IMG/VR virus record: IMGVR_UViG_2778261121_000003
Span: 1 to 45,596 of that record
DNA: 45,596 nt
Origin: a virus
Taxonomy: Duplodnaviria; Heunggongvirae; Uroviricota; Caudoviricetes
Strand: one strand, 5' to 3'
A program made the position numbers and the translations under genes. Shown one piece after another: positions 2,786 through 44,259 of this stretch (position 1 is its first letter; every line of letters begins with the position of its first letter). A model generated the notes under the pieces. That model was not told where the DNA came from, searched no databases, and worked only from the letters and a program-made list of their open reading frames with translations.

Positions 2786-2807
2786 AATAAGTAAGTAATT
2801 ACTTAGT
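2786..2807 (+). promoter_or_regulatory. conserved intergenic motif (ATAAGTAAGTAATTACTTAG), putative phage promoter/operator
   Basis: Member of the GATAAGTAAGTA-type motif family found about 14 times in intergenic DNA, always in + orientation; here in the divergent region between the helicase and ParB-like genes. Confidence 0.4.
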
Positions 2808-2823
2808 AGATTGTAGCAATAAA

Positions 2824-3504
2824 ATGGATGTAAAAATCACGATTTTGCAGGTTGATGTTGCCAACCTTCGCCCGAATACCTGGAACACCAATTCGGTTGG
2901 TGCGCAGAATTTTGAAAAACTGAAAGGTTCTATCGAAAAATTGGGCTTTTTTAAGCCAATTTTGGCTCGTGAACTTGAAGATGGATTTTTTGAAATCCTC
3001 GGCGGCGAACATCGCTGGCGTGCTGCTATTGAGCAAGGAATTTCAACGGTTCCGGTGCTTTCTGTGGGCAAAATTAGCGATGTCGTAGCTAAACAGATGT
3101 CACTGGTGGACAACGAGCGATACGGTGAAGACGACCAAATCGCATTGCAACGCTTCATTGAAGAAATTCAGTCAGAACTTGACTATCAACTGTCTGAAAT
3201 CGCCCCGTATGACGACGAAATCTCGATGGTTTTAGCAAAAGAGGCGGCAATCGACCTTGAAGCACTGGAGGCGTTGTCTCGTGGTAGTGATGAGCCTGTC
3301 GATACCGACAAACGAGAGAAAACCGAACGTGTGGGGGCGGAACATCAGACCATGCGCTTCAAAGTAACTTTCGATGCGTCAGATCGTGTTGCAGAAACCA
3401 TAAAAAACATCATCAAAGAGCAGGCTATTAACACCGGTAATGAAATGGAGAACGCTGGTGAGGCTCTGGTGTGGCTGGTCGACTACTACAAGGAGCGTAT
3501 GTAA
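2824..3504 (+). CDS. ParB N-terminal domain (ParB/Srx-like) protein, paralog 1
   Basis: 226 aa; ParB-box-like GGEHRWRAAIEQG followed by a hydrophobic stretch, typical of the ParB/sulfiredoxin N-domain. Confidence 0.8.
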   Translation: MDVKITILQVDVANLRPNTWNTNSVGAQNFEKLKGSIEKLGFFKPILARELEDGFFEILGGEHRWRAAIEQGISTVPVLSVGKISDVVAKQMSLVDNERYGEDDQIALQRFIEEIQSELDYQLSEIAPYDDEISMVLAKEAAIDLEALEALSRGSDEPVDTDKREKTERVGAEHQTMRFKVTFDASDRVAETIKNIIKEQAINTGNEMENAGEALVWLVDYYKERM

Positions 3505-4172
3505 TGACCAAAAAGTTTGAAATCGTATATCGCGACCCGGCAGATCTTATTCCCTATGAGATGAATGCCAAAAAGCATGATGAACAGCAGATCCGAGATC
3601 TGGCCGCAGCCATTAAAAAGCGCGGATTTGACCAGCCAATTACGGTCGATAAGAACGACGTAATTATTACTGGCCACGGCCGCCGTGAGGCTGCAATTTT
3701 TGCTGGACTTGAGCGCGTACCGGTTATTGTTCGCGATGATCTCAGTGATGACGAGGTTCGTGCGAAGCGCCTTGAAGATAACCGACTTGCCAGCATTGAT
3801 TACGATGCAATTAAGCTACAGAAAGAGCTTGAGTCGCTTGTTCTGGACGATATCGAGGTTTTCGGCTTTGAAGAGCGTGAGTTGAATGTTCTCGTTGGCA
3901 GTATGACAGAAGAAATGGACACCGACTCGCTAGTTATCGATCTTGGCGAAGAAACTAAACGACAGAAGGATGAACACACCGAGATCAGTCGTGAAGTTGC
4001 AGCGGAAGAAGTACGTGTTGTCGACGTATTGGGCTTTAAAACGCTCCCTGCTGGCTCTGCCATTGTTGTTGGTGATTTGCTTGCCCATATGGAAGAAATG
4101 ACGGGAGAAAGCGGGGTAGACGCATTTGTGGCATATGCGGAGAAGATCTCTTCCGGGGAGATGGCTGCATGA
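3504..4172 (+). CDS. ParB N-terminal domain (ParB/Srx-like) protein, paralog 2
   Basis: Start ATG at 3504 overlaps the upstream stop (TAATG) with AGGAG SD at 3491-3495; ParB-box-like ITGHGRREAAIFAG. Confidence 0.8.
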   Translation: MTKKFEIVYRDPADLIPYEMNAKKHDEQQIRDLAAAIKKRGFDQPITVDKNDVIITGHGRREAAIFAGLERVPVIVRDDLSDDEVRAKRLEDNRLASIDYDAIKLQKELESLVLDDIEVFGFEERELNVLVGSMTEEMDTDSLVIDLGEETKRQKDEHTEISREVAAEEVRVVDVLGFKTLPAGSAIVVGDLLAHMEEMTGESGVDAFVAYAEKISSGEMAA

Positions 4173-33555: not shown

Positions 33556-33807
33556 ATGCTAGGCAGCCTGATGACAAAGCTAAAAGTTGCTTTGATTACG
33601 CTGGCTGCCGTTCTTTTCGTTCTGGTCGGCGCTTATACGATGGGCGGAAATGCGGCGCGACGAGCAATGGAAGAGAAGGCAAAACAGGAAGACAGAAAAC
33701 GACTTCAAAACACAGTGAAAGTGGTGAATGAGACGAGCAGTAAAATACGTCAGAAAGATGCTTCTGCCGTTCATCGTGAGTTGTATGATAAGTGGGTGCG
33801 TCATTAA
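33556..33807 (+). CDS. i-spanin (Rz-like)
   Basis: 83 aa; N-terminal TM helix (LKVALITLAAVLFVLVGAY) followed by a charged helical region; an o-spanin lipoprotein ORF overlaps in a different frame. Confidence 0.7.
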   Translation: MLGSLMTKLKVALITLAAVLFVLVGAYTMGGNAARRAMEEKAKQEDRKRLQNTVKVVNETSSKIRQKDASAVHRELYDKWVRH

Positions 33808-33943
33808 ACCACAAACAGCCAGCGTGTTGTTCTGCGATGGGGCTGAGCCTATCTATATCAGCAATAATGATGTAATGACTGAAGAAACCGAACGCCAAAT
33901 CCTTTTTCACAATACGATGGGAGAGAGGGTTTGTGGTTGGTGA
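33728..33943 (+). CDS. o-spanin (Rz1-like outer-membrane lipoprotein)
   Basis: Signal peptide with lipobox MISGC (LLPFIVSCMISGC); overlaps and extends beyond the i-spanin gene. Confidence 0.7.
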   Translation: MRRAVKYVRKMLLPFIVSCMISGCVIKPQTASVLFCDGAEPIYISNNDVMTEETERQILFHNTMGERVCGW

Positions 33944-33950
33944 TGTCGAA

Positions 33951-33972
33951 GTTCCCCTCAAATGAGGGGAAC
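33951..33972. terminator. hairpin between convergent genes (possible bidirectional terminator)
   Basis: GTTCCCCTC-aaat-GAGGGGAAC between the o-spanin stop and the stop of the minus-strand toxin gene; no clear T-tract. Confidence 0.4.
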
Positions 33973-33975
33973 ACA

Positions 33976-34497
33976 TTATTCTTCGAACAATTTTTCGATA
34001 GATTTTGTAGGATAGAACAAAGAACGCTCGTTGTTACCAACCAGCTGGATAAAGCCTAAACTTTTATAAAACGCCTTGGCTTTGTCATTTAACGCCTCAA
34101 CGAAAAGTCCATGAATGCCTACAGCAAGAGATGCATTGTACACAACGCGCATTGCATGTGTTACAAGCATTGAGCCAAATCCTTGACCTTGAAGGGACTT
34201 GTCCAAAGCCAGCCTACCCAAAGTAACACTTGGAACATTCCGATAAGGAACCTTCTTTTGTTTGCTTCTTGAAGGTAAGGACTCCTTTTCAAAGCAGCTG
34301 CCTGACAAAGTGTAATACCCTAACACTTTGGGTCTGTCTTCTTTAGTGCAAAGCACATAAGCGCGAAGAATTTTTCCCTCATGCTGCCTTTTTAAGTGGT
34401 TGGTTAAAAAGGCATTTAGTGATTCTTCACCGCAATCAAAACCATTCAAATCATAATCTTTCTCTCCAGAGAAAATTTCTATCTTTATATTATCCAC
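33976..34497 (-). CDS. GNAT-family acetyltransferase toxin (TacT/AtaT/KacT-like)
   Basis: 173 aa; GNAT motif LQGQGFGSMLV; size and sequence character typical of GNAT toxins paired with DUF1778 antitoxins; GTG start 7 nt after the antitoxin stop, with GGAG SD. Confidence 0.8.
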   Translation of the reverse strand: MDNIKIEIFSGEKDYDLNGFDCGEESLNAFLTNHLKRQHEGKILRAYVLCTKEDRPKVLGYYTLSGSCFEKESLPSRSKQKKVPYRNVPSVTLGRLALDKSLQGQGFGSMLVTHAMRVVYNASLAVGIHGLFVEALNDKAKAFYKSLGFIQLVGNNERSLFYPTKSIEKLFEE

Positions 34498-34504
34498 GAG
34501 TAAA

Positions 34505-34774
34505 CTACTCCATGCTTTTCAGACGATCAGCAGCTCGTTTCAGCTTGTCGTTCGGTGCCGGAGGATTGCTTATAGCGTCCATAACCAGATTCCAGGATTC
34601 TTCATTCAGAACTAGTCTACGGTGTTGCTCTATAACTTTCACGGCACGTTCAGATGCACTGCTAACCATAAACTGAGTAATGCTCTGGTTAGACATTGCG
34701 GCAGCTTCCTCGATGATGCTTTTATCGTCATCGGTTAATCTCAAATCGATGCGCTGCTTTTTTAGTGCTGACAT
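34505..34774 (-). CDS. DUF1778-type (RHH) antitoxin (TacA/AtaR-like)
   Basis: 89 aa from ATG 34774 (AGGAGG SD); RIDLRLTDDDKSIIEEAAAMSNQSITQFMV...NPPAPNDKLKRA matches the DUF1778 antitoxin pattern; directly upstream of the GNAT toxin. Confidence 0.8.
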   Translation of the reverse strand: MSALKKQRIDLRLTDDDKSIIEEAAAMSNQSITQFMVSSASERAVKVIEQHRRLVLNEESWNLVMDAISNPPAPNDKLKRAADRLKSME

Positions 34775-34894
34775 GTATTCCTCCTGATGGCCGTGATGTA
34801 GGAAGGCCATCAATCTCCTCTGTTCAAACTGAGTTTTCGACTCAAAAATTACTTTAAAAGGCTATAGCCCATTACGTGTGCATTATCAAATTGT

Positions 34895-34913
34895 GTACGG
34901 CATATCACCGTAC
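34895..34913. promoter_or_regulatory. palindrome in TA/ParA divergent promoter region (candidate operator)
   Basis: GTACGG-catatca-CCGTAC about 120 bp upstream of the antitoxin start, in the 280-bp divergent intergenic region. Confidence 0.3.
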
Positions 34914-35092
34914 TTGTAATATAGAGGTCATTGTTACTTTTTTCAACAGACAAATACAAGCTATGATTGCCAATTGTTAATCACAACCTACCATTTAACC
35001 TTTACACCGCAGCCGTAGGCATTTAGGCTATATCACATATAAGAAAACAAGTTGTTTCAGACGATAATTATATACGCAAAGGGAACTCTCCA

Positions 35093-35761
35093 ATGACCAA
35101 GATCTTTGTGGTTGGCGGCACAAAGGGCGGGCCTGGCAAATCCACCGTTGCCCAGCAAATTGCCGTTTGCCTGAAAGTCAAAAAGAAGAAGAAGGTTTAT
35201 ATTACCGATATAGATATTCAGCGCACGACAACGAGCTGGTGTGAAGACCGTCGACAGAACGAAGACCTTGAGCTGATTCCTTTTGCATACGTTCAGGATG
35301 ACATCATTAAGCACCTAAAATCGCTTCAGGGTAGAGCTGAGTATGTAGTGGTAGATGCTGGTGGCTTTGACTCCGAAATTCAGCGACAAGCGATGCTGAT
35401 GGCCGACGTTATCATTATCCCGCTGCGTCCTAAGCGTCGTGATTTGAAATCTCTGCGTGACATCGATCCTATTATCGACAATGTTCGCAATGTAAACGAT
35501 AAAGTGAAGGTACGCGCGGTCATGAACCAGTGCCCGGCTTTGCCATCACAAGTATCTCGCATTCTGGCGGCTAAAGAGATTGTCGAGACGTTTGGCATCG
35601 AGTCTGCGCCTGTCAATCTATATAACCGCAACGTCTACGATGATGCGGAAGAGTCTGGTCGTTCTATCTTTGAAATGACCGGTAGCGAGCGCGACAAAAA
35701 GGCGGAAGCCGAGTTTGAAGAATTTGTAGATTATCTGTTGAGTCTGGAGGAAGAAGAATAA
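35093..35761 (+). CDS. ParA/MinD-family partition ATPase (type Ib, ParF-like size)
   Basis: 222 aa; deviant Walker A VVGGTKGGPGKST. Confidence 0.85.
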   Translation: MTKIFVVGGTKGGPGKSTVAQQIAVCLKVKKKKKVYITDIDIQRTTTSWCEDRRQNEDLELIPFAYVQDDIIKHLKSLQGRAEYVVVDAGGFDSEIQRQAMLMADVIIIPLRPKRRDLKSLRDIDPIIDNVRNVNDKVKVRAVMNQCPALPSQVSRILAAKEIVETFGIESAPVNLYNRNVYDDAEESGRSIFEMTGSERDKKAEAEFEEFVDYLLSLEEEE

Positions 35762-36120
35762 TGTCCATGAAAATGGGTGACCTAGCAAAGCGCAAAGAGC
35801 CTGATGCACCGGCTAAGAACACAACTCCTTTGCGCCAACCAGTCAGACCGCAGGGACGCCCGACTCGTGGCAAAGAGAAAATTAAAAGCCGCACAATGTC
35901 ACTGGAGGACGAATACTTCGAACTGCTTGAGATGATGAAGTTCATCCCTCGCTTCGAGAAGTTCACCCGTTCTGACGTGATTCGCGCAGCCATTTTCCAT
36001 CTGGCAGAGAAGTCACCGCAGGAAATCGAGGACATCGTGAAACTTAACGAGGCGATCACAGCTGCCGACGTTACGATGCGTACCGATGAAATCAAGCGAG
36101 AACTCATGAAAAAAGGCTGA
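35761..36120 (+). CDS. putative ParG-like RHH centromere-binding partner
   Basis: 119 aa; basic disordered N-terminus then a short strand-helix-helix-like C-terminal region; translationally coupled to the ParA gene (ATGTCCATGA overlap). Confidence 0.5.
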   Translation: MSMKMGDLAKRKEPDAPAKNTTPLRQPVRPQGRPTRGKEKIKSRTMSLEDEYFELLEMMKFIPRFEKFTRSDVIRAAIFHLAEKSPQEIEDIVKLNEAITAADVTMRTDEIKRELMKKG

Positions 36121-44012: not shown

Positions 44013-44087
44013 GATGGTGTAGCTCAGCGGTAGAGCAGTTGGCTGTTAACCAACTGGTCGGTGGTTCGAATCCACCCACCATCGCCA
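44013..44087 (+). tRNA. tRNA-Asn (anticodon GTT)
   Basis: Manual cloverleaf: acceptor GATGGTG/CACCATC, anticodon stem GTTGG/CCAAC with loop CTGTTAA, T-arm GGTGG-TTCGAAT-CCACC, encoded CCA. Confidence 0.8.
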
Positions 44088-44092
44088 ATTTA

Positions 44093-44179
44093 GGGGAGTT
44101 AGTCCGTAGAGGTAGCGGTGTAGACTGTAAATCTACTGTCATGGCGACTCGGGTGGTTCGACTCCATCACTCCCCACCA
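44093..44179 (+). tRNA. tRNA-Tyr (anticodon GTA), long variable arm
   Basis: Manual cloverleaf: acceptor GGGGAGT/ACTCCCC, anticodon stem GTAGA/TCTAC with loop CTGTAAA, long variable arm, T-arm GGTGG-TTCGACT-CCATC, encoded CCA. Confidence 0.75.
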
Positions 44180-44183
44180 AATT

Positions 44184-44259
44184 GCCGGTTTAGCTCAGTT
44201 GGTAGAGCAGTCGCTTTGTAAGCGAATGGCCAGCGGTTCAAGTCCGTTAACCGGCACCA
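44184..44259 (+). tRNA. tRNA-Thr (anticodon TGT)
   Basis: Manual cloverleaf: acceptor GCCGGTT/AACCGGC, D-arm GCTC...GAGC, anticodon loop TTTGTAA, T-arm AGCGG-TTCAAGT-CCGTT, encoded CCA. Confidence 0.75.

Follow-up and report, generated by a model that had tools for sequence, protein, structure and literature searches.

An AtaRT/KacAT-type toxin–antitoxin operon on an exchangeable cassette of an SSU5-like Escherichia coli phage-plasmid

The closest solved relatives of the gene pair described here are AtaR-AtaT of E. coli O157:H7 and KacA-KacT of Klebsiella pneumoniae HS11286. Both toxins, AtaT and KacT, belong to clade A (Bikmetov et al. 2022, PMC9177977), and for both of them growth arrest by the toxin and rescue by the antitoxin are known (PMC9177977, PMC7595197). 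The two toxins target Gly-tRNA as well as tRNAs charged with hydrophobic residues, among them Trp, Tyr, Phe and Met. The KacAT operator is a 27-bp pseudo-palindrome across the transcription start with an AT-rich centre, and the base contacts in the KacAT-DNA crystal fall on G5, C8, G9 and G10 of the 27-mer (PMC6698736). Excess toxin lifts the promoter repression of KacAT. Among phage-plasmids, the SSU5 group has toxin-antitoxin systems among its shell genes (Pfeifer et al. 2021), and Misson et al. 2023 (PMC9928086) list CYRAN_26, a KacT toxin, and CYRAN_27, its antitoxin, among the morons of the LF82 prophages. Transcription of these two genes in lysogens is 35-fold and 60-fold over the prophage background, respectively, and Cyrano, which also carries a HicAB pair, is present at about 5.5 copies per cell (PMC9928086). 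The pair that we describe is ordinary in this respect: family, structures, tRNA-acetylation chemistry and operator logic are well established.

The window, by which we mean the whole stretch of 45,596 nucleotides that was analysed, derives from an SSU5-like E. coli phage-plasmid. The features on which our argument relies are the following.

33728..33943, plus strand: Rz1-type spanin ORF (phrog_1275, Rz-like spanin, 1.3e-24), whose stop codon comes from the cassette
33941..34985, no strand assigned: whole cassette, 1,045 bp, missing from SSU5, PhiR41_1 and other SSU5-like phage-plasmids
33951..33972, no strand assigned: perfect stem-loop GTTCCCCTCA/TGAGGGGAAC (inverted repeat I5, 10-nt arms, 100% complementary)
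33976..34497, minus strand: GNAT toxin gene of the AtaT/KacT clade, 173 aa, GTG start (ORF list, Pfam and PDB matches)
34505..34774, minus strand: RHH/DUF1778 antitoxin gene, 89 aa, ATG start (Pfam TacA1 PF08681, PDB KacA/AtaR)
34508..34511, minus strand: putative toxin ribosome-binding site GGAG within the last codons of the antitoxin gene, in the sequence CATGGAGTAGTTTACTC-GTG
34895..34913, no strand assigned: candidate operator palindrome GTACGG-N7-CCGTAC, overlapping the predicted transcription start
34918..34946, minus strand: predicted sigma-70-type promoter, -35 TTGAAA at 34946-34941, 17-nt spacer, -10 TATATT at 34923-34918
35093..35761, plus strand: ParA partition ATPase (NCBIfam ParA_partition 2.3e-33, Pfam AAA_31/MipZ), divergent from the cassette

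The two reading frames lie exactly where the first-pass annotation had put them, that is, an 89-aa antitoxin and a 173-aa, GTG-started toxin on the minus strand and 7 nt apart. The antitoxin, which ends in ...NPPAPNDKLKRAADRLKSME, comes first, the spacer between its stop codon and the toxin GTG reads TTTACTC, and the same-strand pair is preceded by one promoter-like site and followed by a hairpin, which is the arrangement of an operon. An AGGAGG sequence is found at 34780-34785, 5 nt before the antitoxin ATG. With its own putative ribosome-binding site placed inside the end of the antitoxin gene, the toxin is likely to be translationally coupled to the antitoxin. The stem-loop at 33951-33972 occupies the 32-nt gap between the stop codons of the convergent Rz1 and toxin genes; it scored as terminator-like on the plus strand, while its minus-strand T-tract is weak, and it is probably a two-way transcription terminator.

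The start of the antitoxin could be fixed at 34774. A longer form of 101-102 aa, starting at ATG 34810 or TTG 34813, was considered and rejected: in an allele of the cassette with about 90% identity a 1-nt indel puts the extension out of frame, and therefore the upstream codon is not the real start. In addition, the alignments with AtaR and KacA begin at M1 of the 89-aa form. In the annotation of Cyrano the antitoxin begins at the upstream ATG and has 101 aa, a length that we judge excessive. The choice of start also bears on the divergent region towards parA, for which a length of 280 bp and a palindrome had been noted at first pass. The palindrome is real, while the length, measured from the 89-aa start to the parA start at 35093, is 318 bp; the shorter figure matches the upstream TTG/ATG at 34813/34810.

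Judged from its sequence, the pair forms an intact type II operon and belongs, within the GNAT-toxin/DUF1778-RHH family of toxin-antitoxin systems, to the AtaRT/KacAT clade. The antitoxin, which has an N-terminal RHH part, matches the Pfam TacA1/DUF1778 family (PF08681) over residues 8-86 with 5.7e-26 and 90.7 bits (cut-off 21), and its best PDB matches are KacA (6.6e-42) and AtaR (1.3e-40). The toxin has a GNAT fold with the acetyl-CoA motif QGQGFG, which contains G108, and matches GNAT domains above the Pfam cut-offs and no other Pfam family. When it was searched against all PDB sequences, 16 matched, with AtaT of E. coli O157 (1.6e-80, 272 bits) and KacT of Klebsiella (1e-74, 253 bits) at the top; the remaining solved GNAT acetyltransferases and toxins, some of them co-deposited with DUF1778 chains, reached at most 82 bits. 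By these bit scores AtaT and KacT are closer than TacT, ItaT or AtaT2. In gap-free pairwise alignments with the O157 proteins, the toxin is 70% identical to AtaT and the antitoxin 76% identical to AtaR. The first-pass annotation had read the pair as a GNAT/DUF1778 type II module and had proposed a profile search for TacT-family membership as a way to overturn that reading; our profile and PDB searches instead place both proteins in this family, with AtaRT/KacAT nearest. The antitoxin carries the RefSeq name "type II toxin-antitoxin system TacA family antitoxin", and its PHROG family, phrog_10531, is still labelled "unknown function".

We compared the toxin with the 18 residues of AtaT that were shown to be important by mutagenesis (PMC7595197). 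Fourteen are identical, including G108 of the acetyl-CoA site, the catalytic Y144, Y85, R95 and, in helix alpha-3, S76, S78, K79, K81 and K82. Three residues are changed conservatively (A26S, R71K and K77R) and one non-conservatively (R40E); because R40 and A26 of AtaT are E40 and S26 here, the substrate range may differ. Using the residue lists for the KacT dimer and the KacA-DNA contacts (PMC6698736), we found equivalents of the dimer residues G67, Y86 and G128 and of the catalytic Y145 in the toxin, and R8, D10 and R12 in the antitoxin. Relative to the 90% allele, synonymous changes outnumber non-synonymous ones in both the toxin (39:13) and the antitoxin (12:2), from which it follows that both genes are kept by purifying selection. 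These residues also speak to the idea that the enzyme is an ordinary small-molecule or protein acetyltransferase that is accompanied by an RHH regulator and is no toxin. Such a reading might appeal to the enzyme's generic GNAT matches in Pfam and to its RefSeq name, which is merely "GNAT family N-acetyltransferase". It is hardly credible in view of the full-length 70% identity to AtaT, the conservation of the alpha-3 lysines, Y85 and R95 used in tRNA binding, the TacA1-family partner and the AtaRT-type operator.

The predicted promoter at 34946-34918 has 10 of 12 consensus matches and is the top sigma-70-like site of the region. The palindrome, which reads GTACGG-TGATATG-CCGTAC on the minus strand, begins 4 nt past the -10 hexamer. 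As noted at first pass, it lies at 34895-34913, and it occurs once in the 45.6-kb window, with no chance matches expected (100 shuffles). The same arms with a 7-nt spacer, equally placed relative to the -10 hexamer, are found 5' of the chromosomal ataRT of O157, 5' of a chromosomal homologue in E. coli S1 and 5' of the 90% allele. In a four-way alignment (A1), the palindrome arms and the promoter hexamers are nearly the sole invariant columns 5' of the start codon. Given this invariance across three diverged homologues, the palindrome can be taken, almost with certainty, as the operator that serves the module. The numbering of the KacAT contacts would fit GTACGG with 4-bp flanks, as 4+6+7+6+4 adds up to 27. 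Both sequence features of autoregulation are present, namely a palindrome at the transcription start and the antitoxin residues R8, D10 and R12. The leader from the promoter to the antitoxin start folds no better than shuffled sequence (z = -0.55) and gave no sign of a structured RNA. A small hairpin at 34785-34812 is kept in the 90% allele and missing from ataRT.

The genes sit on a cassette that can be delimited by comparison with relatives. In five of them (SSU5, PhiR41_1 and three phage-plasmids) homology ends at 33935-33940, within the last Rz1 codons, and it picks up again at 34986, or at 34992 in one Klebsiella-type relative. These breakpoints define a 1,045-bp cassette with sharp ends. 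No direct or inverted repeats that could serve as site-specific insertion signals were seen in the junction sequences, which makes homologous recombination in the conserved flanks the simpler reading. On the lysis side, ORFs of 111 and 239 aa, where Cyrano has its annotated holin and endolysin, are followed by Rz and Rz1, both of which match PHROG spanin families; on the other side lies ParA. The location between a lysis and a partition cassette that had been claimed at first pass is correct, and so is the view of the module as a moron insertion, in that relatives hold other cargo at the same sharp breakpoints and the Cyrano copy has been reported as a lysogeny-expressed moron. Because the cargo differs between relatives, the slot between Rz1 and parA appears to be a general site of cargo exchange. 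Some relatives carry two forward-strand genes of about 130 and 250 aa (phrog_2594 and phrog_3307) and another variant a lone reverse-strand HHH-domain protein. Apart from HHH_2 in the single-gene variant, Pfam gave no matches for these alternative cargo genes, and PADLOC models gave none.

An Rfam scan of the whole window returned three tRNAs and nothing else. We considered a link between the tRNA-Tyr of the phage and Tyr-tRNA as a toxin target and dismissed it as chance, the probability that at least one of three tRNAs falls among the five AtaT targets being about 0.58.

The module is shared with deposited elements. Over 1.8 kb around the pair, the window is 98.3% identical in nucleotides to Escherichia phage Cyrano (pLF82), and two "CMS-2020a" records are also 98% identical across the 1.8 kb; among deposited phage genomes, close toxin homologues occur solely in these three SSU5-like E. 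coli records. At a threshold of at least 80% nucleotide identity, the cassette was found in 152 of 5,426 complete E. coli genomes, on plasmids every time and at no chromosomal place. About 3% of these genomes thus carry it, as an allele group confined to plasmids. At the same threshold, PLSDB holds 145 plasmids with the cassette (140 from Escherichia and 3 from Shigella), in which two allele groups of about 98% and about 90% identity occupy one slot. Up to roughly one quarter of carriers have both the plasmid module and chromosomal ataRT. Plasmids of 62-64 kb from E. albertii keep Rz, the cassette, parA and replication genes; the 24 kb on the far side of the cassette, across the origin of the circular record, hold metG, apbC and others and no virion or tail genes, as far as the incomplete PLSDB gene table goes. 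This is suggestive of reduced derivatives that have retained the cassette. In the deposited plasmid pTIC (MF554642), the toxin and two-thirds of the antitoxin are replaced by aac(6')-Ib-cr; a literature search on this record found nothing.

We consider it probable that the locus is an AtaRT/KacAT-type operon on an exchangeable 1,045-bp phage-plasmid cassette, which would act by aminoacyl-tRNA acetylation and serve addiction. The two halves of this explanation differ in strength: on present sequence evidence, the identity of the pair together with its molecular mechanism seems nearly certain, while the addiction role has about an even chance of being right. By extension from AtaT and KacT (70-76% identity), a toxin dimer would transfer an acetyl group from acetyl-CoA to the alpha-amine of charged tRNAs, a chemistry to which the conserved Y144 and the residues contacting the tRNA acceptor stem point, and translation would be blocked. 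The C-terminal half of the antitoxin would wrap the toxin and prevent it from binding acetyl-CoA and from dimerising. Within a toxin-antitoxin4-toxin (T-A4-T) hexamer, the RHH dimers at the antitoxin's N-terminus would occupy GTACGG-N7-CCGTAC across the transcription start and keep the operon repressed. Toxicity, tRNA targets and lability of the antitoxin are assigned to the pair by analogy with its relatives.

Among the roles proposed at first pass, namely stabilisation, exclusion or abortive infection, and counter-defence, stabilisation is the best supported. It would take the form of addiction, in which post-segregational arrest keeps the low-copy plasmid prophage in the lineage. This role is suggested by the plasmid-only distribution (152/5,426, none chromosomal), by the position of the cassette next to parA, by the expression of the near-identical Cyrano genes in lysogeny, by the retention of the cassette in the reduced E. 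albertii plasmids and by the precedents of GmvAT on Shigella pINV and Phd-Doc on P1. On the other hand, many SSU5-like phage-plasmids hold other cargo in the slot, and pTIC lacks the toxin and most of the antitoxin, both of which argue against a necessary role in addiction. Cyrano also carries the HicAB pair and, being present at about 5.5 copies per cell and equipped with a system for partition, has less need for addiction. A selfish hitch-hiker would leave similar traces: a module whose loss is harmful once it has been acquired may persist without net benefit to phage-plasmid or host and spread by recombination in its flanks, as the clean cassette edges within conserved flanks, the two alleles (~98% and ~90%) in one slot and the patchy presence among relatives would lead one to expect. 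This account is hard to tell from addiction, since purifying selection on both genes fits either, and we regard it as improbable.

Defence of the lysogen is another conceivable role, in which infection by another phage would free the toxin, for example by shutting off antitoxin synthesis, and the ensuing stop of translation would abort the infection. The variable cargo slot of a temperate element is a typical location of defence genes, the Cyrano copy is expressed in lysogeny, and other tRNA-targeting toxins are reported to act in phage defence. Nevertheless, we think this role unlikely: neither toxin nor antitoxin matches a PADLOC family at E <= 0.01, the cassette is absent from chromosomes and defence islands at 80% identity or more, and the papers retrieved report no GNAT-RHH pair in abortive infection. 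Cross-talk with the host's chromosomal ataRT, whereby the plasmid antitoxin neutralises or represses host AtaT, or host AtaR provides anti-addiction against the plasmid toxin, is a further conceivable role. Chromosomal homologues with about 66-68% nucleotide identity occupy 1,626 places in the 5,426 E. coli genomes (nearly all annotated as ataRT among the matches listed), the two systems do not differ in operator half-sites or DNA-contact residues, the antitoxins are 76% identical, and coexistence is real, with up to 71 genomes having two homologous places. In Klebsiella, plasmid KacA3 relieves chromosomal KacT2. In contrast, three TacAT paralogues of Salmonella are reported not to cross-neutralise, and the co-occurrence of at most 71 of 299 plasmid places (24%), a rough count uncorrected for phylogeny, is close to the 30% background and therefore does not indicate that pairing is either favoured or disfavoured by selection. 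We hold cross-talk to be an improbable reason for the presence of the module. A linked and more far-reaching proposal is quite unlikely as well: the plasmid module and host ataRT could form one regulatory or neutralisation network, in which gain or loss of the plasmid copy re-sets the host toxin (anti-addiction or counter-defence), and the Rz1-parA slot could be a dedicated exchange site whose other cargo (phrog_2594 with phrog_3307; the HHH protein) represents analogous new addiction or defence modules.

Since the Cyrano copy was annotated and published in 2023, the finding is known both in kind and in instance. Both GenBank and RefSeq already contain annotated copies of the cassette, and the present description carries little weight as a discovery and modest weight as annotation. 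What is gained is the antitoxin start, the limits of the cassette, and the position of its promoter and operator. Should addiction prove true, the cassette would help to account for how SSU5-like phage-plasmids persist, a group with members that bear resistance genes.

Compared with described systems, the module is nearest to the Cyrano copy, with which it shares slot and cassette. The antitoxin proteins are identical and the toxins 96% identical, differing at six amino acids; in Cyrano, CYRAN_26 and CYRAN_27 are annotated as "KacT acetyltransferase-type toxin" and "putative antitoxin". AtaR-AtaT of E. coli O157:H7 (PDB 6GTS, 6AJM, 7CHD) likewise has the antitoxin gene before the toxin gene, with products of 88-89 and 173-175 aa, and has in common with the window module Y144, G108, the tRNA-contact residues Y85, R95, K79, K81 and K82, and a GTACGG-N7-CCGTAC operator directly past the -10 hexamer. 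However, AtaRT is chromosomal, between livJ and panM, whereas the window module is confined to plasmids; their nucleotide identity is 66%, the leader before the antitoxin start is about 100 nt longer in the window module, and the toxin departs from AtaT by R40E, A26S, R71K and K77R. KacA of K. pneumoniae HS11286 (PDB 5ZGN, 5XUN) is a slightly better match to the antitoxin than AtaR, while the toxin matches KacT slightly less well than AtaT (1e-74 versus 1.6e-80). In KacAT, as in the window module, the operator palindrome extends across the transcription start; KacAT is chromosomal in Klebsiella, and conditional cooperativity has been demonstrated for KacAT only. With regard to function, GmvAT of Shigella pINV is a type II module on a low-copy replicon that promotes vertical transmission, and its GmvT is also a GNAT toxin. 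Phd-Doc of the phage-plasmid P1, the classic precedent, is likewise a type II module of a low-copy replicon that promotes vertical inheritance, and it belongs to an unrelated protein family. Stabilisation has been demonstrated for GmvAT and Phd-Doc, and we infer it for the window module.

The gap between the Rz1 spanin gene and parA is a cargo-exchange slot of SSU5-like phage-plasmids. It was delimited in the window, where it holds the toxin-antitoxin cassette, and in five related loci (local coordinates):

33941-34985, slot in the window
2797-3953, slot in L002
4634-5809, slot in L003
2311-3431, slot in L007
2282-3459, slot in L008
2840-3361, slot in L009

Two alternative contents were found: a forward-strand module of two genes (~130 and ~250 aa; phrog_2594 and phrog_3307), and a lone HHH_2-domain protein of 173 aa encoded on the reverse strand. 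Searches of Pfam and PADLOC returned no match for the two-gene module, which could be a further addiction or defence module.

In the 113-kb SSU5-like plasmid pTIC (MF554642.1; L012), a resistance gene has displaced the toxin gene together with the final two-thirds of its antitoxin partner:

2539-3227 of L012, aac(6')-Ib-cr replacement, equivalent to window 33979-34667

Outside the replacement, which begins precisely at the shared stop codon, the flanking sequence matches the window at 99-100% identity. The knock-out arose either naturally or by engineering; a literature search on the record MF554642 found no paper. The cassette is retained, together with Rz, parA and the helicase, primase and ligase genes, in reduced derivatives of the phage-plasmid from E. 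albertii (62-64 kb), among them p2014C-4015-1 (63.8 kb; L010 and L013). On its other flank, reached across the origin of the record, the virion genes appear to have been replaced by metG and apbC (chromosomal-type), a further GNAT gene and a RelE/ParE pair.

Within the cassette, the antitoxin matched phrog_10531 end to end (3.2e-47). PHROGs, a phage database in wide use, labels this family 'unknown function' although it is a TacA/DUF1778 antitoxin, a minor gap in its annotation. We also examined the leader and the cassette edge:

34775-34911, minus strand, leader
34785-34812, minus strand, 8-bp hairpin TGATGGCC...GGCCATCA in the leader, ending just 5' of the ribosome-binding site
34964-34983, 20-bp near-palindrome TGATTGCCAATTGTTAATCA at the extreme edge of the cassette, adjoining the conserved parA upstream region

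The leader of the phage-plasmid alleles is ~100 nt longer than that of chromosomal ataRT. As a whole it folds no better than shuffled sequence; the hairpin is kept in the 90% allele, the second allele group in this slot, despite a loop indel. The near-palindrome is not conserved in that allele.

Beyond the slot, parA is followed by a small reading frame:

35761-36120, plus strand, 119-aa ORF overlapping the parA stop by 1 nt

Its counterpart in Cyrano, a ~98% identical phage-plasmid, is labelled 'RelE/ParE putative toxin', an identity unsupported by our searches: Pfam gave no match, PDB nothing below E = 0.8, and NCBIfam one sub-threshold match to the aCcr1 family (residues 54-79, 21 bits, cut-off 60). 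The place of the ORF directly after parA points to a small centromere-binding protein that partners ParA, so Cyrano's toxin annotation is probably mistaken.

A cluster of three phage-borne tRNA genes lies further downstream:

44013-44259, plus strand, tRNA-Asn(GTT), tRNA-Tyr(GTA) and tRNA-Thr(TGT)

Tyr-tRNA is among the published targets of AtaT, the E. coli homologue of the toxin; given that three tRNAs are present, this correspondence is most likely a coincidence. The Cyrano annotation lists Asn, Thr and Ser instead, in an order differing from that of the window.
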